Below, piece by piece: positions 925-28,162 of a stretch of 32,000 nucleotides of DNA. Position 1 is the first letter of the stretch. Every line of letters starts with the position of its first letter. The stretch comes from Candidatus Lokiarchaeum ossiferum (GTDB taxonomy: Archaea; Asgardarchaeota; Lokiarchaeia; Sigyniarchaeales; Promethearchaeaceae). The stretch covers positions 150,001-182,000 of the forward strand of contig CP104013.1 in the NCBI GenBank assembly GCA_025839675.1. Direction: 5' to 3'. A program made the translations under genes and the position numbers. The notes below the pieces were generated by a model. That model saw only the letters and a list, made by a program, of their open reading frames with translations. It did no database searches and was not told the DNA's origin.

Positions 925-1104
925 AAAAGAGATAACAAATTCTGAAATAATTGTAGAAACATAAATTCTTTTTTTCCAAGTAGTATGAAAGATCTTAATA
1001 ATAAGAAAGAACTAGTTTTAAAAATAAATTGAATGTGTTAATGAAAAAAGGGACTGAATTTACCTTATACAAATAAAAATCAACAATATTACTAGGATTT
1101 GAAA

Positions 1105-2034
1105 ATGAGCAATTTACGAAATCTATCTTTATCAAAAAAGAGTTTGAGAAAAATTGAGGGACTGAATATTTATACAGACTTGGTAACACTTGTTTTAAAT
1201 CACAATGAGATACAAAAAATTGAAGGTCTTGATAATTTAAGAAAAATAGAGATTCTTAAAATGAATGATAATCAAATCCATAAAATTGAAAATCTAAGTC
1301 ATTTAACCAATTTAAAAAACCTATCATTAAGTAGAAACTTAATTCAAAAAGTTGAAGGATTAGATAATTTATGTAATCTTCGTTCTTTGAATCTCAGTTA
1401 TAATGATATTTCTAAAATAGAAGGTTTAGATAAGAATTTTGAACTCCGACAATTGCGGATACGTGATAATATACATATTAGAAAAATTGAAGGTTTAGAT
1501 AATCTTAGATCTTTACAAGTATTAGACTTAGGAATAATAAATATAGTAAAAATTGAAGGATTATCTTATTTGCATTCATTAAAAGATTTAATTTTTACCT
1601 TACCAAAGAATTGTGAAGTTGATCTACAAATCGAAGGTTTTGAACACCTTATTTCAGCAAAAAATATCGATATTGATTATTATAAATTCCAAGAAGAATT
1701 TGTGGATTCAAAAACCATTGTATGTCTTTTAAGGTTTGCCTGTATTATTAAAACTCAAATAAAATTGGATGATTGGCAACGTATCTTAATGATTTTTCCG
1801 GGAAATTTTTGGATGTATAGCAATACCCATTCGATTGATCATGTAAATTGGTATTTAAATCAATGTCAACCACATCTGGAGAAATTTATCACAGATTTGA
1901 CTTCTGAACAAAATTATCATTCCATTTATAATGCTTCTAAGAAAAATTGGGATCTTTTTCTAACTCGAGTGAAATTATTTTTGAAAGAATCTCCCCAAAT
2001 CAAACCAATCTATGAAATAGATCCCAAACTATGA
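1105..2034 (+). CDS. Leucine-rich repeat protein, SDS22-like 22-residue repeats, plus an unassigned C-terminal domain
   Basis: At least 7 tandem 22-aa units with consensus NLxxLxLxxNxIxKIEGLDxLx, e.g. LVLNHNEIQKIEGLDNLR, LKMNDNQIHKIENLSHLT, LSLSRNLIQKVEGLDNLC, LNLSYNDISKIEGLD. The track start 1099 is TTG; the first ATG is at 1105. Confidence 0.8.
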   Translation: MSNLRNLSLSKKSLRKIEGLNIYTDLVTLVLNHNEIQKIEGLDNLRKIEILKMNDNQIHKIENLSHLTNLKNLSLSRNLIQKVEGLDNLCNLRSLNLSYNDISKIEGLDKNFELRQLRIRDNIHIRKIEGLDNLRSLQVLDLGIINIVKIEGLSYLHSLKDLIFTLPKNCEVDLQIEGFEHLISAKNIDIDYYKFQEEFVDSKTIVCLLRFACIIKTQIKLDDWQRILMIFPGNFWMYSNTHSIDHVNWYLNQCQPHLEKFITDLTSEQNYHSIYNASKKNWDLFLTRVKLFLKESPQIKPIYEIDPKL

Positions 2035-2898: not shown

Positions 2899-4014
2899 TT
2901 AATTTGGATGGGATAGGAGTTTTTTTTTCTTGGTATATTTAAAAATTAACACCATAACAGGGAAGAGAGCTATAGGAATAAAATTATACCCTTGGATGGT
3001 TTTGTTTCCATCTAATCCAAAAATTTCGATTATTCTCACCCCATCTTTTAAATCTGCTACATATATTAAATTGCCACATATTTCGACATCAAATGGTTCT
3101 CCACCATCCGAAAAATGTCCCAATTGTGTTGGGTTAGTTGGATCTGAAATATTCACTAAGTAAACTCCCTTTTCCATATCTGCAATATAGGCAATCCCAT
3201 TCTTCACTTGTAAATCACATGGATCTCCTTCTAAAGAATAATGACTGACATGTATTGGCTTGGAGTGGTTGTTAATATTGTATATATGAAGCCCTTTTTC
3301 TAAGGAATTATCGGTGAAATAGGCATACTCCTTTTCAACAAAAACACCGAAGTATCCGGGGGAACGATTCATTTTTGAAAGAGTATTTAAGTTGGATGGA
3401 AGGCTGGCATTTATAATTTCAAATCCAAATTCATAATCGGCTGAAAATACAGTTTGATTTTGGACAAACAAATTACTGGGTTTCCCACCACTCTGAAAAT
3501 GGACTATTTTGTTAGGGTGGTAAGGATCACTCACATTCACTATTTTAATACCCGCAGAAGATCCAGAAACGGTCCCATGATCACTGAGATAGGCTAATTC
3601 ATCTTCAACATAAACATCGATAATCGCTCCCGCATCGTGATAACTGCTAAGATATGTTGGAGCCATAGGGTCGCTAATATTATATATCCTTAACCCCCCA
3701 AATAAAATGGCAATAAAAGCCAAATCGTGTTTAACAAATATCCCATTGGCTTTTTTAGCGCCTGAATCTTGGAATAATTGCGTAGGATTTTCAGGATCAC
3801 TTACATTATACATCAGAAATCCATTGATATCATCAGCAATGTAGCTGATATTATTTTTCACAACAACATCGGTAACCATACCATTGGTTTCAATTAAACC
3901 AATCTCTTTCATAGGAAACCTCGTTCCGGAAGCTTTCGTAAAATTTCCGGGAAATATTCCACCCATCAGTAAGATAATACCAATGCAAATCAAAAATTTT
4001 GTTTTATATTTCAT
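2899..4014 (-). CDS. LVIVD-repeat beta-propeller surface protein with N-terminal signal/anchor and C-terminal TM helix
   Basis: Repeated units of the type YIADxxxGxxxxNVSDPxNPTQL, e.g. ISYIADDINGFLMYNVSDPENPTQL, GIKIVNVSDPYHPNKI, IAYIADMEKGVYLVNISDPTNPTQLG. The N-terminus is hydrophobic and the C-terminus reads IPIALFPVMVLIF followed by KKKK. ATG at 4014; the track start 4023 is GTG. Confidence 0.75.
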   Translation of the reverse strand: MKYKTKFLICIGIILLMGGIFPGNFTKASGTRFPMKEIGLIETNGMVTDVVVKNNISYIADDINGFLMYNVSDPENPTQLFQDSGAKKANGIFVKHDLAFIAILFGGLRIYNISDPMAPTYLSSYHDAGAIIDVYVEDELAYLSDHGTVSGSSAGIKIVNVSDPYHPNKIVHFQSGGKPSNLFVQNQTVFSADYEFGFEIINASLPSNLNTLSKMNRSPGYFGVFVEKEYAYFTDNSLEKGLHIYNINNHSKPIHVSHYSLEGDPCDLQVKNGIAYIADMEKGVYLVNISDPTNPTQLGHFSDGGEPFDVEICGNLIYVADLKDGVRIIEIFGLDGNKTIQGYNFIPIALFPVMVLIFKYTKKKKLLSHPN

Positions 4015-4033
4015 AATTATCACATTTTTTTTT

Positions 4034-9129: not shown

Positions 9130-9239
9130 GCATAAATCTTGGGAGTTAATCCATATAAACACTACTTTTTCAATATATATTAAAAGAGACAAATACCTTT
9201 TTATTTGAGCCTAATAAGTGTACATTGGGAAATACCAGC

Positions 9240-11561
9240 ATGTTAATTGATCATATTTGGATTTGTAATCAATTCGGAATCAATTCAGATTGTTTTCAGA
9301 TATATCAAGAAAATACCGCAAGCTTCCTTAACGATCCAAAAATTTTAACCTCCCTAAAGAAGTGGCAAGCCTCCAAGTTTACACAAAACCATATTAGACT
9401 GAAATCCTCATCACTTAATCTTACCGAGGATGGTCCTATAAAAGAAACTTCCCTTTTCTTTTTTAGATACAGCTATTTATTCCAAGTTTTGAATACTTGT
9501 GTCCATTTTATTGCCCCTAAATTCAATTTGTCAAAAGATTATTGGGTTTATTATTATTGGACACACGATTATCAGAAAGAATTATTCCCAAATCTTAAAG
9601 AAACTTTCCCTTCGAATTTTAAAGGAAATGTAGTCATCGCAAAAGAAGATTTGTTTGGTGATCTGCTAAATGAAATACTAATGATTAATTTACGAGAAGA
9701 AAAAGGGATGTTTTATACTCCCCAGATTTTAAGTAATTTTTTTATGGAAATCCTAGTAAAAACTCAAATTTTCAGACAATCCCGAAAATTAATAGATCCA
9801 ACTTGTGGATCCGGAAGTATTCTTCTGCCCCTAATAAAAAAGATTATTAATACTACAGAGAATATCGAGCAAAAGAAAAATCACATTTTAAATATTTACG
9901 GGAACGATGAAAATCCCGTTGCAATTTTGGCTACTCTTGCTAACATAGTCAACCTACTATGTGAATATAATTTCTCTTCAGGATTTTATCAAAAAATGTG
10001 TCAGAATTTTTCTTGTCAAGATGTTTTTAAATTCCATAATTTATCAGAGAATCATGATTATAAACATCACTTTGATATAATTATCGGAAATCTTCCATGG
10101 AATGTGATAAACAACATCCAAAACCCTCAAATTAAGGAATTGATCATTTCAGTTGGAAAGGAATTTGATATTTTTATGACATGGAAGAATCAATCCAATT
10201 TAGAAATTGCAACTGTTCTATTCAAAATTTTACAGCATAATTTACTTACCGAAAATGGCCATATTGGTTTTTTACTTCCTGCTAGTTTATTAACTGCAAC
10301 GCAACATTCGAAATTCCGTCGATTTGAAGGATTGAAGAACTTGCACAGCTATCACATAATACCCGACTTCTTTCCAATACATTCGATGTATTTAATTGCT
10401 CAAAATGATCAAAATGCTTCTCGAAACGATGATTTTCAAATTATTACTGCAGAATACTATCATTTGTTTGAAGAATCAAATTCGTGGTCAAGAACTCGAA
10501 AAGAATGCTTGGAAGCATCTCATATTTCCTATCATCGTGGAAAACCTTTAGTCGGAAAGTATTATACTAAAAGCACGGAAGAATTTATTTTACCGATAAA
10601 GAAATCCGGATATTATTCTTCTGTAAAAAGAGGTATAGATATCACCCCTAGAAGGTTAATTTTTATCCAATCCACCAAATCCGTCAATGTTGCTTTTAAA
10701 AACCCTGAAACTCAAAAATTGGAGATTTTTCCTGATCTAGATCAAATGAAATCAACTCAGAGTTCACGATGGGATTTTACTCCGTATAAATCTTCCCAAA
10801 TTGACAGCAGTGATCTTCATTTGGTTGTTAAAAGTACTGACTTAATCCCCTTTGCTTTGAATAACTTTCACTATGCCTTTTTACCACTTAAAATCTATGA
10901 TGGACACTATATGTTAAAAAAAAATGAGGAGTTAGGTGCACATTCCCGTGACCATCTTAATCTACTTGAAGATATTTACAAAAAACACCGAAAACCTACT
11001 GCAAAAAATCAAACTTTGATGGATAGTCTAAATTATGGAAAAAAAATTCAAAATCCCGATATGATTGCTCCTATTAAGGTAGTTTATCCTGTTGGAGGCT
11101 CTTATTGTAAAGCAGCCATCATCAACCATCCAAATATAGTAATTGATGTTACATTTTATTATATTGCATGTAATGACAGGAATGAAGCATATTATTTGTT
11201 AGCATGGTTAAACTCTTCTCTTCTACAAAAAAATCTTCCCCGTGTTTGTACAATTGGGGCGAATGGGAGTATACGAGTCATTCATATGGCTCCCTGGATG
11301 TTTCCTCTTCCAAAGTTTAATTTTCAGCAAGAACAAATGAAAATTGTTGAATTATCGAAACAACTAGAAAATGTTTCCAGAAATGTTCTAATATCTAATA
11401 AGATTATTTCAAATCACTCTTTTCCTCATTTTACCAACAAGTTATTAAAAAAATCCCGAAGGAATGTCTATAAAATATTGAAAACAAGCTCAAAATATGT
11501 CGAAATAATTTCAAAAATTGATAATCTTTTTCTTTCTATGATAAAATTAAACGCAGAGTGA
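9240..11561 (+). CDS. Gamma-class N6-adenine DNA methyltransferase (Eco57I/TaqI-like) with a long C-terminal putative target-recognition region
   Basis: Motif X-like GMFYTPQILSNFFMEIL (about 9708-9760), motif I IDPTCGSGSILL (about 9795-9830), and motif IV FDIIIGNLPW (GNLPW at 10085-10099), which deviates from NPPW. ATG at 9240; the track start 9225 is TTG. Confidence 0.8.
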   Translation: MLIDHIWICNQFGINSDCFQIYQENTASFLNDPKILTSLKKWQASKFTQNHIRLKSSSLNLTEDGPIKETSLFFFRYSYLFQVLNTCVHFIAPKFNLSKDYWVYYYWTHDYQKELFPNLKETFPSNFKGNVVIAKEDLFGDLLNEILMINLREEKGMFYTPQILSNFFMEILVKTQIFRQSRKLIDPTCGSGSILLPLIKKIINTTENIEQKKNHILNIYGNDENPVAILATLANIVNLLCEYNFSSGFYQKMCQNFSCQDVFKFHNLSENHDYKHHFDIIIGNLPWNVINNIQNPQIKELIISVGKEFDIFMTWKNQSNLEIATVLFKILQHNLLTENGHIGFLLPASLLTATQHSKFRRFEGLKNLHSYHIIPDFFPIHSMYLIAQNDQNASRNDDFQIITAEYYHLFEESNSWSRTRKECLEASHISYHRGKPLVGKYYTKSTEEFILPIKKSGYYSSVKRGIDITPRRLIFIQSTKSVNVAFKNPETQKLEIFPDLDQMKSTQSSRWDFTPYKSSQIDSSDLHLVVKSTDLIPFALNNFHYAFLPLKIYDGHYMLKKNEELGAHSRDHLNLLEDIYKKHRKPTAKNQTLMDSLNYGKKIQNPDMIAPIKVVYPVGGSYCKAAIINHPNIVIDVTFYYIACNDRNEAYYLLAWLNSSLLQKNLPRVCTIGANGSIRVIHMAPWMFPLPKFNFQQEQMKIVELSKQLENVSRNVLISNKIISNHSFPHFTNKLLKKSRRNVYKILKTSSKYVEIISKIDNLFLSMIKLNAE

Positions 11562-11572
11562 AAAATATTCTT

Positions 11573-12670
11573 CTATTTATTAATATCAACTAATTGCATG
11601 ATAATCCAAAGGAGAGATTCTTCTATTCCATAATTTTTCTCAATTGAAACAATGCTAAATCCTGAATTCAGATTCAAATGATCAAAATGTATTAGATTAT
11701 AAATTTCCTCTGTTGTATAGTTATTAATTTTATCTGATTCATTAGCTAAGAGAATTATGGGTATTTTTTGTCTTTTTGGTTCATTTATTCTGTCAGAACA
11801 ATAATGATCAAAAACTTTTTGAAAATTTGAATGGAGTTTAGCGATTTCTTCACGGGGTGTTATAGGATCAAATACTGCTATTATAGCTATGGGCTTTTTG
11901 CAAACATCGAACCACATTTTGCAAGGAATCGTATCTAAATCATATGCCCAAAATTCAACTTGCTCTAAAAATTGTTTTAATATTAACTTTCCTGGGGTAA
12001 TTGAAGCTAAATCATCTGATTCTGTATATGTCGACGCATTTTTGAACATATCAACATACAATTTTTGATGATCTGTAGAAACATTATCAATTAATCTTTG
12101 TTTACCCGCTTTTTTATTACCAATAACAAGTATTCTTCCCAATTGAATAGAATTTAAATAACGTTCTAAGAATCTCGCACTGGATGAGATAGTATAATTA
12201 AGAAAATAGAGAAAATCTCGGATTTCTTCATCTTTTTTTTCTTTTTCGCTGTAAAATCCTTTGTAGAGATTTTCTTTTGTTTTAAATTTATCTGCAATTT
12301 GGAGCATAAACTCTTTTACTGAACTGAATTTTTGGTTAGAATTTAAGACAACTGTTAACATTACCGATTCTATGCTACCTCGGGCCCATTCAGATTCAAT
12401 CTCAAAAATATAGTTTCCTAAGGTCAATCCTTTCTCCACTATTCGATGTTCAAAAAATCCTTCGGGCAAGTTTAGATCAAGCAAATTGCAGACCAAGGTA
12501 TCGATATGCGATTTAACTTCGGGAGGACTGGCCAAAAAAACCACAGGTCCTCGATGGGTATCGAAGTGAGTTAAAATTATCTGGAAGGGATTATCAGAAG
12601 TCTCATAGATTTCTTCCGTAATTTTATTTTTATAAAAGGAAATTAAAGGCATATACAAAATATATTTCAC
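11573..12670 (-). CDS. Fusion protein: N-terminal longin-like domain plus C-terminal Arf-like small GTPase domain with degenerate catalytic motifs
   Basis: C-terminal half: G1 GNKKAGKQ (12098-12121) and [28 protein letters not shown]. The latter has the same 28-residue length and the same W-to-W spacing as Arf [13 protein letters not shown]...IFVVD, but lacks the GGQ. G4-like LLANESDK and an Arf-like tail [10 protein letters not shown] are also present. N-terminal half: [20 protein letters not shown] followed by a beta-beta-alpha-beta-beta-beta-alpha pattern. The GTG start at 12670 has AAGGTG upstream; an alternative ATG lies at 12652. Confidence 0.55.
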   Translation of the reverse strand: [365 protein letters not shown]

Positions 12671-12755
12671 TTGACACCTTATTTACCTTTTCTACTACAA
12701 TTCTATTTTTTTGAGGGAATGAATCACTTTTAAATTCTTAAATTGATATTTACCT

Positions 12756-14479: not shown

Positions 14480-15823
14480 TTATTCCACTATGATTGAGGT
14501 CTCTTTTATTGTGTCTGATTCCATTGGTTCCGAAGCACCTTCAAATCTTTCAAAATCAATTTTATGCATTTGTCTTGTAAGAATGAAGATTGAAATTATT
14601 CCCATCGCAATGAATGCACATATTGTGAAAAGATTCCCAATTCCAAGATATATTCCTAATGGAGCCGCCAACATCATTCCAATTGGTGTGGCAATTGCAC
14701 TAAAAACTGAGTCTAATGAAAAGACTCTTCCTAGTTTGTCCTTAGGTACAGAAATTTGAATATAGGTCAAATAGAATGTATTGATGACTGGGATTGAAAA
14801 TAGAAGTATGAATCCTCCTAAGCTGATCAACCAAAATTGACCGAAAGGTGCTAAACCAACTAGAGCATACCCTCCAAATGCAATGTAGTGCCAGATAGAA
14901 AAGTGAAATCGTTTTCTTTTCCATGTTTTTTTTACCGACATAAGAATGGACCCACCTATTATTCCTGCTGTTATAAAAATGGAGACAATTGCGTAAGTAT
15001 TAGCATCTCCTCCATGATCATAAAGAATAAAATAAGTTGTCAGTACATTGATTGGGGTAATCAGCAAATTGTTAAAAATTGCAGTAGTTATTAAAACCCA
15101 CAATCCAGGTGTGTCTTTGATAGTTTGCATTCCTTCCTTGAAATCTTGAAAATACGATGATTTGGTATTTTTCTTTTCGATATTCGCTTCTTTAAGTAGA
15201 CTTGAGACTTTTTGAACTTTTGGAATCTTGATTATTAGAAGTGGGATGAAACCAATTATGAAAGTTATAATATCTAGCCACATTATCTGAAAAATTGAAT
15301 ATTTTGAGACTAATAGCGCTCCAATAAATGGGGATACCATTTGAACTAACGCTTGAAGTAAAGAATTAAGTCCATTTATTTGTGATAATTTTTCATCAGG
15401 TACCATCAAAGGAATAATTGTATTGACCGCGGGTCGTTGAAAAGCGCTCCCAATGTATCGAATCCCCATGAAAATAATAAAAGTCCAAATACTTGAAGAT
15501 AAGAATATTGCAAATAGGATTAATCCTAAAGTTACAAGTGCTTGATAAGCATCCGATAGGAAAATTATAACCTTTTTATTATAACGATCTGCTAATACTC
15601 CCGCTAATGCGCCAAAAAGTATATTTGGTAAAAACATAAAAAGCATCATTAAACTCATGTAAATTGGATTTGCAGATTGTTCAGTAATCCACCAAGATCC
15701 TGCAAATTGAACTACACTTGAACCGAAGAGAGAAATCAGTTGGCCAATCCAAAATATTAAATACATTTTGAAAGTTTTATTGTTTTTTTCAATTATTGGT
15801 TGATTTGAGTTTGTTTCTTCCAT
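14480..15823 (-). CDS. MFS transporter (DHA3/EntS-like efflux type), paralogue 1
   Basis: 12-TM-like hydropathy and GVLADRYNKKVIIFLSD between TM2 and TM3. Roughly 55-60% identical by eye to the adjacent paralogue. ATG 15823 gives MEETNSNQPIIEKNNKTFKMY, which parallels MEKQLTIEKNNKTFKMY. Confidence 0.85.
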   Translation of the reverse strand: MEETNSNQPIIEKNNKTFKMYLIFWIGQLISLFGSSVVQFAGSWWITEQSANPIYMSLMMLFMFLPNILFGALAGVLADRYNKKVIIFLSDAYQALVTLGLILFAIFLSSSIWTFIIFMGIRYIGSAFQRPAVNTIIPLMVPDEKLSQINGLNSLLQALVQMVSPFIGALLVSKYSIFQIMWLDIITFIIGFIPLLIIKIPKVQKVSSLLKEANIEKKNTKSSYFQDFKEGMQTIKDTPGLWVLITTAIFNNLLITPINVLTTYFILYDHGGDANTYAIVSIFITAGIIGGSILMSVKKTWKRKRFHFSIWHYIAFGGYALVGLAPFGQFWLISLGGFILLFSIPVINTFYLTYIQISVPKDKLGRVFSLDSVFSAIATPIGMMLAAPLGIYLGIGNLFTICAFIAMGIISIFILTRQMHKIDFERFEGASEPMESDTIKETSIIVE

Positions 15824-15880
15824 TTTTTTCACTTCATTTGAATTTATCAAAAAAAAAAATCCGAAGATATCATCAATAGA

Positions 15881-17215
15881 TTAAGCCACTTCTGTAATTA
15901 ATACTGGATCTGTTGTTTCTAAATTTTCTATGTGATCTTGTGCATCAATTGCATCAAATTGAACTTTTGAGTATTGTTTTGTGAGACTGAAAAGGGCTAA
16001 GATTCCAAATGCTATAATGCCACAGAGTGTGAACACCATGCTATTACCAATTAAATTAGCTAGTGGAGCTGCTCCAACCATTCCTATAGGAGTCGCCACT
16101 GTACTAAAGAAAGTGTCCATTGAAAATACTCTGCCTTGTTTTTCTTTGGGAACAATCACTTGCATGTAGGTAATGTAAAAGTTGTTTATCATGGGAATAC
16201 TTGCCATCATCAAAAATCCTCCTAAGGCAATCATCCAAAACGCCCCTCTTGGCGCTAAACCAATAATGATCAATCCCCCATATGTCAGAAAATGGAACAA
16301 GATATAACTTCGTCTGCGATTTTTCCATTTTTTCTTTATTGACATGAAGATTGATCCCCCGATTACACCGATTGTAATACATGCTCCAATAATAGAGTAT
16401 ATCAATGCCGATCCTCCATGATCATACAGAACAAAATAAGAAGCAAGAACATTGACCGGTGTTGCGGCGAGATTTGTAAAAAGTACGGAGATAATTAAAA
16501 TCCATAATCCCGGTGTTTCACTAATTCCTTTCAGCCCAATTTTAAAATCGGTGAAAAATGAAGACTTTATTTTGGTTTTCTTTTCTTCATTTTTAGCGGA
16601 AGAAGTTGCCATTTGATGAATATTTGGGAATGAAATGAATATTAAGGGGAGCATTGCGATTCCAAAAGAAATAATATCGATGATCATTATTTGCGAAATA
16701 GTGTAGTAGTTTAACAAGATTGCACCCACAAATGGTGATCCCATGGTTAAGAGTGCCTGCAATAATGAAGAGATTCCATTGATTTGTCCTATTTTATCAT
16801 CAGGTACGAGCATAGGAATAACAGTTTTTACAGCAGGTTGTTGAAATGCTTGTCCAACATAACGTATCGATAAGAAAACTATGAATAACCATAAATCATT
16901 AGTAATTGTTGCAGCAAAGATAATAATCGCTAAGGTAACTAGGGCTTGAAATGCATCGGAAAGAATAATGATTTTTTTACGGCTAAATTTGTCTGCCAAT
17001 ACACCAGCTATTGGTCCGATGATGAGTTGAGGAACGAACATAAGTAACATTAAAATGGACATGTAAAGAGGGTCTTGAGATTGTTCTGTTATCCACCATG
17101 TGCCAGCAAATTGAACGATTGATGATCCGAATAACGAGATACTTTGTCCAATAAAGAAAATGATATACATTTTAAAGGTTTTATTATTTTTTTCAATTGT
17201 GAGTTGTTTTTCCAT
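15881..17215 (-). CDS. MFS transporter (DHA3/EntS-like efflux type), paralogue 2
   Basis: GVLADKFSRKKIIILSD and colinear similarity with 14480-15823. ATG at 17215; the track start 17227 is TTG. Confidence 0.85.
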   Translation of the reverse strand: MEKQLTIEKNNKTFKMYIIFFIGQSISLFGSSIVQFAGTWWITEQSQDPLYMSILMLLMFVPQLIIGPIAGVLADKFSRKKIIILSDAFQALVTLAIIIFAATITNDLWLFIVFLSIRYVGQAFQQPAVKTVIPMLVPDDKIGQINGISSLLQALLTMGSPFVGAILLNYYTISQIMIIDIISFGIAMLPLIFISFPNIHQMATSSAKNEEKKTKIKSSFFTDFKIGLKGISETPGLWILIISVLFTNLAATPVNVLASYFVLYDHGGSALIYSIIGACITIGVIGGSIFMSIKKKWKNRRRSYILFHFLTYGGLIIIGLAPRGAFWMIALGGFLMMASIPMINNFYITYMQVIVPKEKQGRVFSMDTFFSTVATPIGMVGAAPLANLIGNSMVFTLCGIIAFGILALFSLTKQYSKVQFDAIDAQDHIENLETTDPVLITEVA

Positions 17216-17364
17216 ATCTATACTCAATCCTTTTATTTCGGCATAAGAATGGACTTTTTTTGCCTGAATATCACTAGTTTTCCAATTAACATTAAGGTGA
17301 GAAAAACGGGATATCCCTACAAAATAATTTTCGTATGCGAAATTTAAAGTATGATATAATTATG

Positions 17365-17556: not shown

Positions 17557-18294
17557 ATGGATAAAACCTCTCATTATAATCGACAAGCTGAAAAATATCT
17601 CAATACCCGCAATTTCGATTCAATAGATTTTCAACCCTTTAAGACTTTTAAATGGTTTCAATTGCTCCTCGCCCCTATCATTGTTTGGTTAATTTATCAA
17701 GGTCTTCTTTTTGGATTGAACTATTTCCTGGGAAAAAATCCGAATTTGTTTAATTATCTTGCCGGTTTGACTAATTTAATTGTATTTGGGGGATTTTTCT
17801 GGATTTTTGGTCTCCGTTCAAGAAAATTAGATCTACTCATAACAGGTATAAAACCAATTGAATTCGGATCAAAAAAGTGGATTATTTTGGCAATCTTGAG
17901 TGCAATCGTATTGTTAATTGTCCGCATTGTTCTGATGATTATTTTAATTGATCTTTTTCCTGGAATTAGTCCTCCATCTAGAACAAGTGCTGACCCTTCT
18001 CCATTTTTACTTGATTTCACAGTTACTGCTCTAATGGTTCCAATTGGGGAAGAATTATTCTTTCGTGCCTTTCTTTTTAAAGGTCTATGCCAGAAAACAC
18101 ACATATGGTTCGCTATTATTTTGAGTTCAATTTTTTTTGGAGTTGCACATTTTTCTATCCTACAAGGAATCTCTGCTTTTATTTTTGGAATCGTTGTCGC
18201 TTATTTTTATCATCGCTCAGAGTCAATTTACATTCCCATAATCATGCACATGATAAATAATGGGCTTTTGACTATATTACTCCACTTTTTTTAA
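17557..18294 (+). CDS. CPBP family intramembrane glutamic endopeptidase (CAAX protease/Abi), paralogue 1
   Basis: Motif 1 PIGEELFFRAFLF, motif 2 FFGVAHF, motif 3 HMINN. Confidence 0.85.
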   Translation: MDKTSHYNRQAEKYLNTRNFDSIDFQPFKTFKWFQLLLAPIIVWLIYQGLLFGLNYFLGKNPNLFNYLAGLTNLIVFGGFFWIFGLRSRKLDLLITGIKPIEFGSKKWIILAILSAIVLLIVRIVLMIILIDLFPGISPPSRTSADPSPFLLDFTVTALMVPIGEELFFRAFLFKGLCQKTHIWFAIILSSIFFGVAHFSILQGISAFIFGIVVAYFYHRSESIYIPIIMHMINNGLLTILLHFF

Positions 18295-18436: not shown

Positions 18437-19198
18437 ATGATAAATAATGAAAATTTAAACCACCATAACATAGAAGAAATTAAAGAATCAGGTTTGAAAA
18501 CAAATGAAAAAGATGAAGAAGAAGGAATTTCTTGGGGAAAAATACTTCTAATTCCAATTTTGGCGTTTTTTCTCTATCACTTATTCAATTATATCTTTAC
18601 ATTGCTTATTCCAAATAATGAACCTTTACAAAGATTAGCCTTTGGATCCTCCAGTCTATTAGTTTTTGGAGGATATTTCTACTTTTTTGGTATTAGATCA
18701 TCGAAAAATGGGGCTCAAGAATTCGGATTGAGTCCTATCTCATTCGGTAATCCCAAATGGCTCTCTTATGGCTTTTTGATAATCTTAACTTACGTTATTT
18801 TTGGAATTTTAATAATGATGCCCTTTTCTCAATTTTGGAATATTCTTATTAACGAGAACGTATTTTCCAAAGAAAACTTGAGTATCCTATTCTGGATCGA
18901 ACTCCTTGTTATTGGGTTTATTGCTCCCATCAGTGAAGAATTTTTTTTCCGCGGGTTTGTTTATTCCAGCATTAGAAATAAGGTTGGTGTATCAAAAGGG
19001 GTTTTTTTAAGTGCCCTCATTTTTGGAATTGTGCATCTCAATTTATTACAAGGGTTTCTCGCTTTTTTAATAAGTATTCCTTTAGCATATTTATATGAGA
19101 AATCAAAATCGCTGTATGTCCCCATTTTTCTACATGTTTTGAGTAATGTGCTTATTCATCTTACTTCAGTAGTTTTCAAAGTCTATTGGGCAGCTTAA
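18437..19198 (+). CDS. CPBP family intramembrane glutamic endopeptidase (CAAX protease/Abi), paralogue 2
   Basis: PISEEFFFRGFVY, IFGIVHL and HVLSN motifs. An AAGGTG Shine-Dalgarno-like element lies 8 nt upstream of the ATG. Confidence 0.85.
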   Translation: MINNENLNHHNIEEIKESGLKTNEKDEEEGISWGKILLIPILAFFLYHLFNYIFTLLIPNNEPLQRLAFGSSSLLVFGGYFYFFGIRSSKNGAQEFGLSPISFGNPKWLSYGFLIILTYVIFGILIMMPFSQFWNILINENVFSKENLSILFWIELLVIGFIAPISEEFFFRGFVYSSIRNKVGVSKGVFLSALIFGIVHLNLLQGFLAFLISIPLAYLYEKSKSLYVPIFLHVLSNVLIHLTSVVFKVYWAA

Positions 19199-21215: not shown

Positions 21216-21355
21216 TTCAAACTTATTAGAGTGTGTATTTGTAACTTAGCTAAATTTTTCTGGGTTTAATCAAGTGATAAATCCATCATCTTCTTCCACA
21301 AGAACTTCTAGAAGATTTATCTCATTTTCAAATTAAGTTTGAGAAGAAATGAGAG

Positions 21356-21427
21356 TGCGCCATCCGGGAATTGAACCCGGGTCTCCAGGTTGGGAACCTG
21401 AAATGCTAACCGCTACACAAATGGCGC
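21356..21427 (-). tRNA. tRNA-Gly (anticodon CCC), no intron, CCA not encoded
   Basis: Minus strand: GCGCCAT-TT-GTGT-AGCGGTTA-GCAT-T-TCAGG-TTCCCAA-CCTGG-AGAC-CCGGG-TTCAATT-CCCGG-ATGGCGC-A. I folded the full cloverleaf by hand: 7-bp acceptor stem, 5-bp anticodon stem, 5-bp T stem with a TTCAATT loop. Confidence 0.95.
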
Positions 21428-24994: not shown

Positions 24995-27900
24995 TTAGGA
25001 TCCAAATTTTAGACTACGTCTTAACCCTCCGCTTGAAAATTTTTTGCTTTTTGCATTTTTAATTAAATGAATCATAACTCCCATCATGATAATGAAGAAG
25101 AAATTCATTGAATACCCTGGGATACTACCTAAAACATCTGCAAATGGATCTGTATCTTCTGATTGTGTCCCTCTAGGATTGGAGTTATCTGATGTTCCAC
25201 TTCCTGTTCCAGATACGGGGATTACAATTATTGTCATAGTTGCATAATCAGTATTGCCTTGTCCATCAGTTACCCATAAAGTAATTGTAAAAGTTCCTGA
25301 AGAACTATAGCTATGAGTAGGATTTTGTAACGTTGATGATGTCCCATCCCCAAAATCCCAAAAATAAGTAAAGGGTAAAAATTCTCCGATAGATGTACCA
25401 TAGAGAGAAAATTCTTCTAGGCGAAACACATCATTGCCACTTGAAGGGGTAAATGATACTTCAAGGACTTTAATTGGCCCACCATCTTCTATCGTCCACC
25501 CATATATGTAAGTTAGGATGTCATGTGCATTTCCTGCAATAGATTCGTGATAATTGGAATTTCCAGCATGAAATATCACATTTGATTGTAAAAATAATTC
25601 AGACCAGCCGAGGAGAAGCGCATCATAGTTTGTAGATGATAATGCCGCCTCTGCAAACATATTTTCCATGTTTGTAACCGATGAGACATCCCATTGACTA
25701 AGATCTTGATTGAAAACTGTTGCACCTTGGAACATCGAGCCCATTTGAGTAACGCTCGCTACATCCCAATTTTCAATTGGTTGATTAAAATTTTCTGCAC
25801 CCTGAAACATGTACCACATGGAAGTTACTTTTGAAACATTCCACAATCCAATCGGTTGATTAAAGGCTTTTGCTCTCGCAAATGTGGCATGCATCGTAAT
25901 AACATTGGAAACATCCCAACTCCCAATGTCTTGATTGAATGAATCTGTGTCTATAAACATATCCCATATGTTTGTAACGGATGAGACATCCCAAGAATCA
26001 ATTGATCCATTAAATGCGGTTGCCCCTCCAAACATTCGACCCATATTTGTTACTCTAGACACATTCCAATTATTCAAGGGTTGATCAAAAGATATAGCCC
26101 AGTAAAACATACTACTCATATCAGTGACTTTTGAGACATCCCAAGTATCAAGAGGTTGATTGAAAGCTGATGCCCCAGAAAACATGGAATTCATATTGGT
26201 GACTGACGAAACATTCCAATCATTTAAAGGTTGATCAAAGTTCTCAGCGCTATCGAACATCTTATTCATTTCAGTTACATGGGATACGTCCCATGAATTC
26301 AATGGTTGGTTGAATGCGAAAGCATGCTCAAACATGCATTCCATGTTTGTAATCTGTGATGTATCCCAATTATCTAAAGGTTGGTTGAAAGTTTGCGCCT
26401 CATAAAACATCCATCTTGTGGTGGTGACTTGCGAGATATTCCAAATATTTAGGAATTGATCGAAATTTAGAGCATTACTGAACATTCCGTGCATATTGTT
26501 GACATGAGACACATCCCAATTCCAAAGAGGCTGATTGAAAGCTGATGCCCCAGAAAACATGGAAAACATATTGGTAACTGAAGAGACATCCCAATTATTA
26601 ATATCTTGATTGAATGATATGGCATTTTCAAACATATGACTTAGATCTGTTATAGAAGAGACATCCCAATTATTGATATCTTGATTGAACGCTAATGCGC
26701 TGGAAAACACCCCACTCATGGTAATAATATTTGTGAGGTTCCAATTCCCTATGGGTTGGTCAAAAACTGATGCTCCACAAAACATTCCATCCAAGTGTTG
26801 AACATTCGAAACATCCCATTCTCCTATCGCTTGGTTAAAAGCTGAAGTTCCTGAAAACATAGATTGCATATCTAAGACGCACGAGACATTCCATCCTCCG
26901 ATCGGTTGATTGAAGGCAAGAGTATCTAAAAACATTCGATTCATTGTTGTTACTTTTGAAACATCCCAGTTCCCAATGGGTTGATTGAAAGAAGATGCCC
27001 CCTCAAACATTCTAGATGTGTCAGTCACTCTAGATATATTCCAATTTCCAATCTCTTGATCGAAAGTTTCAGCTCCACAAAATAGGCTATTCATTGTATT
27101 AACATTCGAAACATCCCAATTATTCAATGGTTGATTGTAGATGTTAATTCCATGGAACATTTCTGCCATATTTGTGACTGATGATACATCCCAGCTATTT
27201 ATGTTTTGATTAAAACTATAGGCATCAAAAAACATCCCCCCCATATTTGTTACTTTAGACACATTCCAAGTATCAAGGGGTTGGTTAAAACTTGTTGCCC
27301 AATGAAAAGTACCCCCCATATTCGTGACTGAAGACACATCCCATATTCCAATTGGTTGATTAAAACTCCATGCATGGGTGAATATACTGCCCATATCTAT
27401 CACAGAAGAGACATTCCAGACTTCAATTGGTTGATTGAAGTCAGTTGCCCATCCAAACATCATATTCATATCGGATACAGATGAAACATCCCATAAGTTG
27501 ATAGGTTGGTTAAAATCAGTCGCTAAATCCCATTCACCAGTAAAAAACATTTCCCTCATGGAAGTGATTTGGGCAACATCCCACGAATTCATATTTCCTA
27601 TTGTTCCTAGATTAAGACAACGATAAAATGTTCGTTCTAAACTAGTCGTACCCGCAAGATTTGGGGCATCAATTGCGGTAAGGATAAGATTTTCGCATCC
27701 TTCAAAATAATTTCCATTATTTCCAAATGCTATAGAACCCCATTGGCTAATTTCGCTTATCTTTAAACAATCTCCACTTCCTGCAAATCGCCATCCCTGG
27801 AGAATCCCGCTAATTTCAACTATATATATTCCACTCGAGGGATAAGTATGAGTTATTTCACTTTGATTCCAGGCGGTAATTGTATTATTTTCACCATCAC

Positions 27901-28162
27901 CCCAGGCAACCTCAAAAGAATAGGTTCCACTTGATTCCAAGGGCAATTTGATTTGATTATTTCCGGAAACTCCTTCCATCTCGGTATTCCATACTGACAC
28001 AAAAGTATTTGATCCATAGGATGATTTGATTTGTGTTGGTTCAGAATATTCATCCCTTAATTCTTCATTCAAGGGTGTTATGTCAACGGTTCCAAATATT
28101 CCGATACAGAGTAAACTTATCACCGCCAAGACTCCTCCGATATTCTTGTTGAGTTGTTTCAT
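24995..28162 (-). CDS. Large surface protein: signal/anchor, about 24 DUF285-type 26-residue repeats (BspA-like), PKD domain, Gly/Ser/Thr linker, C-terminal TM anchor
   Basis: N-terminal module FVSVWNTE...YSFEVAWGDGENNT. Repeats of the type FxGAxxFNQPIGNWDVSSVTNMxxMF. PKD signature FWDFGDGTSSTLQNPTHSYSSSGTFTITLWVTDGQGN. C-terminus FFFIIMMGVMIHLIKNAKSKK. Confidence 0.85.
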   Translation of the reverse strand: MKQLNKNIGGVLAVISLLCIGIFGTVDITPLNEELRDEYSEPTQIKSSYGSNTFVSVWNTEMEGVSGNNQIKLPLESSGTYSFEVAWGDGENNTITAWNQSEITHTYPSSGIYIVEISGILQGWRFAGSGDCLKISEISQWGSIAFGNNGNYFEGCENLILTAIDAPNLAGTTSLERTFYRCLNLGTIGNMNSWDVAQITSMREMFFTGEWDLATDFNQPINLWDVSSVSDMNMMFGWATDFNQPIEVWNVSSVIDMGSIFTHAWSFNQPIGIWDVSSVTNMGGTFHWATSFNQPLDTWNVSKVTNMGGMFFDAYSFNQNINSWDVSSVTNMAEMFHGINIYNQPLNNWDVSNVNTMNSLFCGAETFDQEIGNWNISRVTDTSRMFEGASSFNQPIGNWDVSKVTTMNRMFLDTLAFNQPIGGWNVSCVLDMQSMFSGTSAFNQAIGEWDVSNVQHLDGMFCGASVFDQPIGNWNLTNIITMSGVFSSALAFNQDINNWDVSSITDLSHMFENAISFNQDINNWDVSSVTNMFSMFSGASAFNQPLWNWDVSHVNNMHGMFSNALNFDQFLNIWNISQVTTTRWMFYEAQTFNQPLDNWDTSQITNMECMFEHAFAFNQPLNSWDVSHVTEMNKMFDSAENFDQPLNDWNVSSVTNMNSMFSGASAFNQPLDTWDVSKVTDMSSMFYWAISFDQPLNNWNVSRVTNMGRMFGGATAFNGSIDSWDVSSVTNIWDMFIDTDSFNQDIGSWDVSNVITMHATFARAKAFNQPIGLWNVSKVTSMWYMFQGAENFNQPIENWDVASVTQMGSMFQGATVFNQDLSQWDVSSVTNMENMFAEAALSSTNYDALLLGWSELFLQSNVIFHAGNSNYHESIAGNAHDILTYIYGWTIEDGGPIKVLEVSFTPSSGNDVFRLEEFSLYGTSIGEFLPFTYFWDFGDGTSSTLQNPTHSYSSSGTFTITLWVTDGQGNTDYATMTIIVIPVSGTGSGTSDNSNPRGTQSEDTDPFADVLGSIPGYSMNFFFIIMMGVMIHLIKNAKSKKFSSGGLRRSLKFGS
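25645..27550 (-). repeat. Coding tandem array with about 78-bp period (26-residue repeats) inside the surface-protein gene
   Basis: The recurring string gacatcccaa...ttgattgaa is visible about every 78 nt on the plus strand (reverse complement of FNQ..WDVS). Confidence 0.85.

Follow-up and report, generated by a model that had tools for sequence, protein, structure and literature searches.

A predicted GAP-type longin domain fused to a motif-degenerate Arf-family G-domain in a conserved Lokiarchaeum branch

We analysed a 32,000-nucleotide stretch of the Candidatus Lokiarchaeum ossiferum genome (contig CP104013.1, positions 150,001 to 182,000; hereafter the window). Our subject is one gene in it, the coding sequence (CDS) of a longin-Arf fusion protein at 11573..12652 on the reverse strand. 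The CDS, stop codon included, encodes 359 aa from an ATG. This ATG is M7 of a 365-aa open reading frame (ORF), and the residue numbers used throughout are those of the ORF; all features of the gene given below lie on the reverse strand. On sequence grounds, the N-terminal half appears to be a longin domain of the GTPase-activating protein (GAP) type found in FLCN, SMCR8 and NPRL2, in which R97 is a candidate arginine finger by position. The C-terminal half is an Arf-family G-domain that fits the pattern of a pseudo-GTPase: the G-fold is kept, the nucleotide motifs are lost, and the domain is under purifying selection.

The longin-Arf architecture itself is already catalogued in Asgard archaea. 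Three accounts, each available to us in part, bear on it. Liu et al. (bioRxiv 10.1101/2020.10.19.343400) describe longin domains fused to GTPases in Asgard archaea and label them 'Rag family'. Tran et al. 2024 (PMC10933270) report that 26 of the 74 small GTPases of Prometheoarchaeum MK-D1 are joined to roadblock or longin domains, 'L-G' architectures included, and Zhu et al. 2025 (PMC11914678) catalogue Asgard AArf/ArfR proteins with an N-terminal longin. The available parts of these three papers contain no functional work on the Asgard fusions and do not place the fused longin among the GP/arginine-finger GAP longins. The original prediction for this locus, made from the DNA letters alone, had called the longin-Arf fusion uncharacterised. 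This stands in the experimental sense, but the novelty was overstated, given that Liu, Tran and Zhu had noted such fusions. What looks new here is a catalytically dead, strongly conserved Lokiarchaeum branch, together with the GAP-type assignment of the fused longin. The literature that we searched held no description of a degenerate G-domain branch, and no paper pairing 'pseudoGTPase' with Asgard. Also beyond the original prediction are the loss of the G5 motif, the conserved arginine at the finger position, and the place of the protein in a degenerate branch of an otherwise canonical large family.

Degeneration of the Arf-family G-domain

The G-domain covers residues 177 to 365 (11576..12142). 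Single-sequence searches of Pfam, NCBIfam and the PDB with the window protein returned only sub-threshold Arf matches; with Pfam Arf (PF00025) it scored 16.4 bits (E 0.0063) against a gathering score of 22.3. Scored against a profile of family members from outside its own clade, the domain reached 88 bits and aligned end to end. Pfam Arf matched 52 of the 53 two-domain family members (best E 3.3e-48). When the family profile was searched against the PDB, it found Arl3, Arl8, Arf1 and the Asgard HodArfR1/GerdArfR1 at 1e-41 to 1e-36, and the 60 matches listed consist of one Sar1a and otherwise of Arf, Arl and Asgard ArfR chains. The top Foldseek matches were Arl8 (4.4e-8), GerdArfR1, HodArfR1, Arf1, Arf4, Sar1 and Arl3, with a probability of 1.00 and template modelling (TM) scores, normalised to the target, of 0.6 to 0.75. 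The family consensus is of the Arf type (GLDxAGKT, PTxG, DVGGQxxxRxxW and an FxW tail). Two members carry the public names 'ADP-ribosylation factor family protein [Promethearchaeota archaeon]' and 'GTPase SAR1 family protein' (NCBI, JGI). We regard the homology of the C-terminal half to the Arf family, which the original prediction had proposed, as secure at the sequence level, via transitivity through the family members.

The start of an Arf-type C-terminal helix is present at Y347-GIEESLLW355-I (residues 347 to 356; 11603..11632), where an Arf tail had been predicted. It aligns to GDGLYEGLDWL of Arf1, and W355 is conserved in at least 90% of the family. The N-terminal amphipathic helix that precedes the G-domain in Arf proteins is absent; what comes before the G-domain here is a longin domain of 148 residues, linked to it by a long helix. 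The available text of Zhu et al. 2025 (PMC11914678) considers Arf-like action on membranes improbable for AArfs with an N-terminal longin.

The nucleotide motifs have changed at four sites. We compared them within the window clade, which consists of the window protein and three orthologues from independent metagenomes: P0001 (91% identity), P0002 (59%) and P0003 (49%). The P-loop (G1), G184-N-K-K-A-G-K190-Q191 (12098..12121), keeps the Gly, Gly and Lys of the canonical GxxxxGK[ST], and the Mg-binding Ser/Thr is replaced by Gln. The clade pattern is GN[KQ][KY]AGK[QS]; the last position is also Gln in P0001 and P0003, and Ser is kept in P0002. In switch II (G3), alignment to Arf1 and to the family places D244-L-D-T-I248 (11927..11941) at the canonical DxxGQ, so that both the Gly and the catalytic Gln are missing. 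The clade has DLD[TV][IFL] at this site (DLDT[IFL] or DLDVF). At G4, the canonical NKxD is replaced by N310-E-S-D313 (11732..11743), which lies in the string LLANESDK and varies as NE[ST][DN] in the clade, with NETN in P0002 and P0003. At G5, S342-I-E344 (11639..11647) takes the place of SAK; the family canon is SA-x, and the clade has SIE. The altered P-loop, the DLDTI switch II and the counterpart of NKQD had all been read from the sequence before. All three changes are real, and they recur in orthologues from independent samples that are under purifying selection.

The original prediction had also pointed to a 28-residue tryptophan-to-tryptophan spacing (residues 241 to 268) identical to that of Arf1. 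In the family alignment, Y243-D244-L-D-T-I248 falls on Arf1 W66-D67-V-G-G-Q71, which puts W241 two residues upstream of the counterpart of W66. The register is regained by W253, since switch II is two residues shorter. The exact match of the spacing is partly coincidental, but the equation of DLDTI with DVGGQ was right.

We predicted the structure with AlphaFold2 from a 53-sequence alignment. The model has a mean predicted local distance difference test (pLDDT) score of 83.7 and a predicted TM (pTM) score of 0.74; a run with only four sequences gave a pLDDT of 55.7 and was not used. The switch I/β2 region contains an insertion, and the model has a low-confidence helix there instead of the interswitch strand. 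An intermediate sister of the clade, P0005 (41% identity), keeps GKT and NKRD and has already lost DxxGQ.

We then have the evidence of selection. With the 91% orthologue as reference, the ratio of nonsynonymous to synonymous substitution rates (dN/dS, Nei-Gojobori) comes to 0.023 in the longin, 0.063 in the G-domain and 0.047 overall. Two neighbouring metabolic genes gave 0.050 and 0.030. Both the longin and the G-domain are under strong purifying selection, and the longin, with the lower ratio, is constrained more than the G-domain. The degenerate motif states recur in four orthologues from independent assemblies and samples. Sequencing error had been named as one way in which the motif changes might prove illusory. 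Because of this recurrence and the dN/dS values, the changes are not errors and the gene is not decaying, and a pseudogene or sequencing error was ruled out.

An exhaustive phmmer search with the window protein returned 217 clusters at E <= 1e-3, dozens of which are proteins of about 320 aa that align over residues 30 to 360. The longin-Arf fusion family comprises at least 61 two-domain clusters at 50% identity. A survey of their motifs found G1 GxxxxGK[ST], G3 DxxGQ, G4 NKxD and G5 SA-x retained in 44 of the 61, and many of these canonical members have the Arf1-like GLDxAGKT, switch-I PT(L)G and DVGGQxxxRxxW. These canonical Asgard fusions share with the window protein the longin, the helical connector and the C-terminal Arf-like G-domain. 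They belong to the same phylum and are homologous to it from end to end (phmmer E 1e-38 to 1e-17 over residues 30 to 360). The window clade differs from them in that the G1 Ser/Thr, DxxGQ, NKxD and SAK are lost, and an N-terminal extension and the switch-I insertion are gained.

DxxGQ is lost in the other 17 clusters, often together with G4 and G5. In a rough neighbour-joining tree the losers (P0014, P0015, P0018, P0024, P0036, P0039, P0043, P0049, P0096, P0105, P0116, P0150 and the window's clade) fall on at least six separate branches. Therefore, recurrent inactivation of the fused GTPase looks, from these motif states, like a family trait. Of the 17 motif-degenerate members, 13 keep the GP...RG signature of the longin. 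In some longer proteins, of about 470 to 700 aa, the sequence continues beyond the Arf domain. A large sequence database yielded one fragment with the N-domain profile and 11 proteins with the two-domain profile, and a scan of species-representative genomes gave one match with a close alignment, in an 'uncultured archaeon' metagenome-assembled genome.

Signatures of the longin half

The longin domain covers residues 29 to 176 (12143..12586) and is modelled at a pLDDT of 93 to 98. Against the family profile built without the window's clade, it scored 139 bits. The model contains β30-37, β41-48, α54-65, β71-77, β82-92, β100-110, α115-131 and α135-140, followed by the connecting helix α149-175. 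The order is β-β-α-β-β-β-α-α, with no N-terminal helix, which distinguishes it from a roadblock domain. The absence of that helix is the feature by which longin is separated from roadblock in the available text of Tran et al. 2024 (PMC10933270). The longin assignment of the N-terminal half, from which a string starting at residue 30 had been quoted, was thus borne out by a confident model. In front of the domain is a clade-specific extension with the pattern KNxIxEExY (residues 7 to 28; 12587..12652), found only in the window protein, P0001, P0002, P0003 and P0005. These 22 residues are predicted to be disordered (pLDDT <40), and the extension could serve as a docking peptide.

The longin half of the window protein had no Pfam family match. 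A Pfam scan of 40 N-domains at E values up to 10 found no recurrent family, and gave a single Afi1 match (0.023) and no NPR2 or Folliculin match. In the alignment of these 40 N-domains, F36, G41, P42, P49, D65, F73, N86, F89, R97, G98 and F139 are near-invariant. G41-P42 (12545..12550) forms a GP motif in the β1-β2 loop, just before β2, and is a hallmark of GAP-type longins. The second signature, W95-A96-R97-G98 (12377..12388), lies in the β4-β5 loop and contains the candidate arginine finger; its R-G is conserved in at least 90% of the family.

According to a 2025 survey (PMC12290439), only GAP longins carry the GP motif: C9orf72, SMCR8, FLCN and NPRL2 have it, and FNIP2, NPRL3, TRAPP subunits, adaptins and DENND proteins do not. 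The motif adjoins the arginine finger, and both are also found in Asgard 'FLCN/SMCR8-type' longins (PMC12290439).

We aligned the family with hhalign to the longin regions of human NPRL2, FLCN and SMCR8, each of which is 100% identical to PDB chains. The first hairpin aligned in all three: with NPRL2 over residues 9 to 41 at G20-P21 (score 29.6, P 1.5e-4), with SMCR8 over residues 57 to 78 at G68-P69 (28.9, P 2e-4), and with FLCN over residues 5 to 20 at G15-P16 (18.0, P 0.017). Shuffled targets (30 each) reached maximum scores of 14.4 to 17.5, and the SNARE longin Sec22b scored 13.5 (P 0.13) with no meaningful region. The earlier remark that the first hairpin resembles that of FLCN is upheld, since the GP hairpins of NPRL2, SMCR8 and FLCN all aligned above both kinds of control. 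In a separate local hhalign alignment, the family W-A-R97-G fell on L-A-R164-G of FLCN, with β3 to β5 in register (P 0.034). The place equivalent to R97 is E-A-R147-G in SMCR8 and S-R78-N in NPRL2. FLCN R164, SMCR8 R147 and NPRL2 R78 are what we take to be the published arginine fingers.

The eukaryotic complexes C9orf72-SMCR8(-WDR41), FLCN-FNIP and GATOR1 NPRL2-NPRL3 have the same longin fold, with GP before β2 and an [x]-A/S-R-G/N arginine after β4. Their clients are Arf1 (C9orf72-SMCR8), RagC/D (FLCN-FNIP) and RagA/B (GATOR1 NPRL2-NPRL3), all of them small GTPases of the Arf or Rag type. In these proteins a DENN or NPRL2-specific module follows the longin, and they act in trans within a heterodimer. 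In the window protein, by contrast, the longin is covalently joined to a GTPase fold, the DENN or NPRL2-specific C-terminal module is absent, the C-terminal half being the Arf-type G-domain, and a GAP role is putative. The Asgard stand-alone 'FLCN/SMCR8-type' longins of the 2025 survey (PMC12290439) and the 'NPRL2-like longin' asCOGs in the available text of Liu et al. have the same GP and arginine finger and come from the same phylum. We infer that the fused domain belongs to the same family as these published Asgard GP-motif longins.

The GP/ARG longin type also occurs outside the plain two-domain form (P0045, P0053, P0063 and others). It is found as a stand-alone protein, or fused to V4R (11 of 46), PAS (6 of 46) or zinc-ribbon domains. 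We take V4R to be related to TRAPPC3/Bet3. Because the GP and RG are kept with these non-GTPase partners, their conservation is independent of a fused GTPase. Fusions of NPRL2-like longins to PAS/two-component-type or V4R domains are also reported in the available text of Liu et al. (bioRxiv 10.1101/2020.10.19.343400).

Proposed function and its alternatives

We suggest that the fusion protein is a two-domain regulatory protein, in which a GAP-type longin is joined through the long helix to an Arf-family G-domain. It would descend from the large Asgard longin-Arf family, whose G-domain would be a normal GTP switch. The G-domain of the window clade lacks the residues for Mg coordination, guanine recognition and catalysis, except for the P-loop GxxxxGK and the Walker-B Asp. 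In this clade GTP hydrolysis would have been lost, leaving a pseudo-GTPase. Binding of guanine nucleotide would be weak or absent, and the invariant GxxxxGK suggests that some phosphate contact may persist. The protein may then serve as a scaffold or regulatory subunit that does not cycle. Dimerisation would take place at the edge of the longin β-sheet, as in FLCN-FNIP, NPRL2-NPRL3 and C9orf72-SMCR8, and the intact GP/Arg surface of the protein, a catalytic one on this view, would be offered in trans to a partner Arf-type GTPase. The most plausible partner would be an active longin-Arf paralogue or a stand-alone ArfR paralogue. Judged from motifs and conservation, a non-hydrolysing pseudo-GTPase that works as a longin-dimerised subunit on an Arf-type partner is the reading that we tentatively prefer, although as a whole we put it at slightly less than even odds.

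Pseudo-GTPases such as CENP-M, the pG domains of p190RhoGAP and the hydrolysis-dead GTPases of the Rnd/RhoH type keep the G-fold while G1 to G5 are degraded, and are selected as scaffolds or locked modules. In the window protein, unlike these, the dead G-domain is joined to a domain whose usual role is to regulate live ones.

However, several observations weigh against the proposal. G184, G189 and K190 of the P-loop are invariant across the 53-member family, the degenerate clade included, and D244 is kept. These residues may support nucleotide binding, and a G-domain that looks dead may be locked rather than empty. The candidate finger R97 may point at the P-loop of its own chain, in cis, or outward, in trans. 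The likeness to the eukaryotic GAP longins is limited to short motifs, and the hhalign probabilities are at most 52%. The N-domain profile, searched against PDB sequences, reached NPRL2 only at E 1.4, and its helical tail gave mostly coiled-coil noise. In the whole-protein Foldseek search, the one non-GTPase among the 50 matches shown was 9o5d_D (KICSTOR-GATOR1-SAMTOR; E 8.4e-5, 148 columns), a match for which the subunit and the query domain are not assigned. Finally, no partner GTPase gene was found near the fusion gene, which has no conserved operon partner. Its neighbourhood is intact in the 91% orthologue, partial in the 59% orthologue and lost in the 49% orthologue, and so is shared by close relatives only.

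The 2025 survey (PMC12290439) posed the question of which Asgard GTPase, ArfR or Rag, the GP/arginine-finger longins act on. The available parts of the prior accounts do not use the fusion to answer it. The widespread covalent fusion of this longin type to Arf-type G-domains is direct genomic evidence for a pairing with Arf. In a bolder form of our proposal, the fusion family might act as a 'Rosetta stone', the client of the Asgard GP/arginine-finger longins being an Arf-type GTPase. The window protein might then be a 'dead GTPase, live GAP' subunit that pairs with an active paralogue in an asymmetric dimer. We consider this extension doubtful. If true, the family would be a forerunner, in prokaryotes, of the GAP systems that act from C9orf72-SMCR8 on Arf and from FLCN/GATOR1 on Rag, and the dimer would foreshadow the asymmetry between catalytic and scaffold subunits in FLCN-FNIP, NPRL2-NPRL3 and the Rag heterodimers. 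The GTPase half can be inactivated with the longin motifs under stronger constraint, and the losses are repeated; therefore, regulatory asymmetry of the eukaryotic kind may already have been evolving in Asgard archaea. This bears on the origin of the eukaryotic nutrient-sensing and trafficking GAPs (FLCN-FNIP, GATOR1 and C9orf72-SMCR8), whose longin carries a GP motif together with an arginine finger. More speculatively, longin-DENN modules might have arisen from intermediates of this sort, in which a longin adjoins a degenerate α/β G-fold. The source organism, L. ossiferum, is in culture, hence these predictions can be tested by experiment.

The strongest alternative is that the G-domain goes on working as a nucleotide switch, its chemistry being altered. 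It would bind a nucleotide through GxxxxGK and D244, perhaps independently of Mg or, in view of NESD/NETN, perhaps one other than guanine, and the longin finger would act in cis to make the protein self-timing. The invariance of G184, G189 and K190, even in the degenerate clade, and the retention of D244 are as expected of such a switch. The replacement residues Q191, D246, E311 and E344 are conserved in the clade, suggesting a selected pocket and not drift. P0002 retains the P-loop Ser, and the pTM of 0.74 suggests that the two domains pack against each other. Variants of NKxD can alter base specificity: a change of D to N favours xanthine nucleotides, and the NxxE of YchF-type proteins favours ATP. 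However, all four motifs that contact the base or Mg have changed together, and both guanine-packing lysines, of NKxD and of SAK, have become Glu. The insertion at switch I/β2, with its low-confidence helix in place of the interswitch strand, also argues against a switch. So does switch II, where the Gly and Gln needed for conformational change and catalysis are missing in every clade member. We consider a self-timing switch rather unlikely.

A second alternative takes both sites as vestigial and the protein as a purely structural adaptor, made of a nucleotide-free G-fold and a longin platform, like CENP-M or the non-catalytic longin/roadblock scaffolds. The GP and RG would then be kept for folding or dimerisation, and not for catalysis. 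The joint loss of the G1 Ser/Thr, G3, G4 and G5 agrees with this, as does the conservation of GP and RG in longins fused to V4R, PAS and Zn-ribbon domains. Purifying selection, for its part, shows that the protein is needed and not why. On the other hand, GAP longins alone have the GP motif, which scaffold longins lack (PMC12290439). The longin also evolves more slowly than the G-domain (0.023 against 0.063), as expected of a functional business end, and the invariant GK of the P-loop speaks against a fully empty pocket. We judge a purely structural role unlikely, and still prefer the pseudo-GTPase subunit that acts in trans.

It is very improbable that the G-domain is of the Rag/Gtr or SR-beta type, which would make the protein an inverted Rag or a fused analogue of SR-alpha(SRX)/SR-beta. 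The 'Rag family' label in the available text of Liu et al. points that way, and Pfam does give matches to Gtr1_RagA in 26 of the 53 family members and to SRPRB in 43 of the 53. However, their best E values (1.6e-10 and 5.1e-13) are far from the 3.3e-48 of Arf, which is the best Pfam family in 52 of the 53. The PDB profile matches listed and the top Foldseek matches are Arf, Arl, Sar1 and ArfR proteins, the consensus motifs are Arf-type, and members are named as ADP-ribosylation factor or SAR1 family proteins. Rag/Gtr is likewise a small GTPase covalently linked to a platform of the roadblock/longin superfamily that is expected to mediate dimerisation, and Rag heterodimers are functionally asymmetric. 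But its domain order is the opposite, a G-domain and then a C-terminal roadblock, whereas the window protein has the longin first and a G-domain that is Arf-type by every profile test. In SRX longin-SR-beta and MglB-MglA, a longin or roadblock platform is likewise bound to an Arf- or Ras-like GTPase, but the two are separate polypeptides, and MglB is a roadblock homodimer. To our knowledge, SRX has no GP or arginine-finger motif.

That the gene is an artefact of sequencing or assembly, or a decaying pseudogene, can practically be discounted: the window protein alone does fall under the Pfam Arf threshold, but the same motif states stand in orthologues of four independent assemblies and samples, the 359-aa frame is intact, two Lokiarchaeum genome assemblies contain the identical protein, and the overall dN/dS equals that of the housekeeping neighbours.

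The gene, its neighbours and other genes in the window

The ORF listing gives the gene as 11573-12670 on the reverse strand, with 365 aa from a GTG, and the original prediction had adopted these limits. The ORF and the strings quoted from it are present, but the start has to be moved. All orthologues begin at a Met equivalent to M7 (MP... or MC...). The six-codon GTG extension is not conserved and contains in-frame stop codons in the L008 orthologue (91% identity). Because of these two observations, the true CDS is 11573-12652, with 359 aa. The GTG at 12670 was rejected as the start, despite an AGGTG upstream, owing to the stop codons within the extension of the closest orthologue. In the region 12653-12727 (reverse strand), this AGGTG and the non-conserved GTG downstream of it are 4 nt apart, and the conserved ATG at 12652 has no obvious Shine-Dalgarno sequence. 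NCBI records include both the 359-aa and the 365-aa forms of the protein.

The fusion gene is monocistronic. It is divergent from an amidohydrolase gene, with about 100 bp between them, and convergent with a gene for a 778-aa N6-methyltransferase, with 11 bp from stop to stop. The gene order is amidohydrolase, fusion gene, methyltransferase, TrkA-like, deoxyhypusine synthase and agmatinase. No paralogue of the fusion protein was found in the DNA examined.

The methyltransferase gene (9225-11561, forward strand) encodes an N6-adenine methyltransferase that combines type IIG-like with specificity-subunit-like regions and lacks an obvious nuclease domain. Its convergence with the fusion gene is kept at the orthologous loci L008 and L004 and lost in L001. 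The N6-methylase neighbour prompted us to consider a link to a defence system. This was rejected, as there was no PADLOC match, the arrangement is convergent, and the synteny is lost in L001.

The window has a G+C content of about 32% and contains archaeal markers, for example deoxyhypusine synthase. A leucine-rich-repeat protein with six LRR_4 units is encoded at 1099-2034 (forward strand), and a gene for a leucine-rich-repeat protein also adjoins the P0002 orthologue in L004. An LVIVD-repeat protein is encoded at 2899-4023 (reverse strand). Tandem paralogous transporters of the MFS_3 type are encoded at 14480-15850 and 15881-17227 (both reverse strand); in the orthologous contig L009, a flavodoxin-like gene lies between the two MFS genes. 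They are followed by tandem paralogous genes for Rce1-like intramembrane proteases (CAAX prenyl endopeptidase/CPBP family) at 17557-18294 and 18437-19198 (both forward strand). A 1055-aa protein encoded at 24995-28162 (reverse strand) contains 11 DUF285 repeats (1228 bits), has a PKD domain at its C terminus and is probably a large surface protein. The only tRNA gene in the window is that of tRNA-Gly (CCC) at 21355-21427 (reverse strand).

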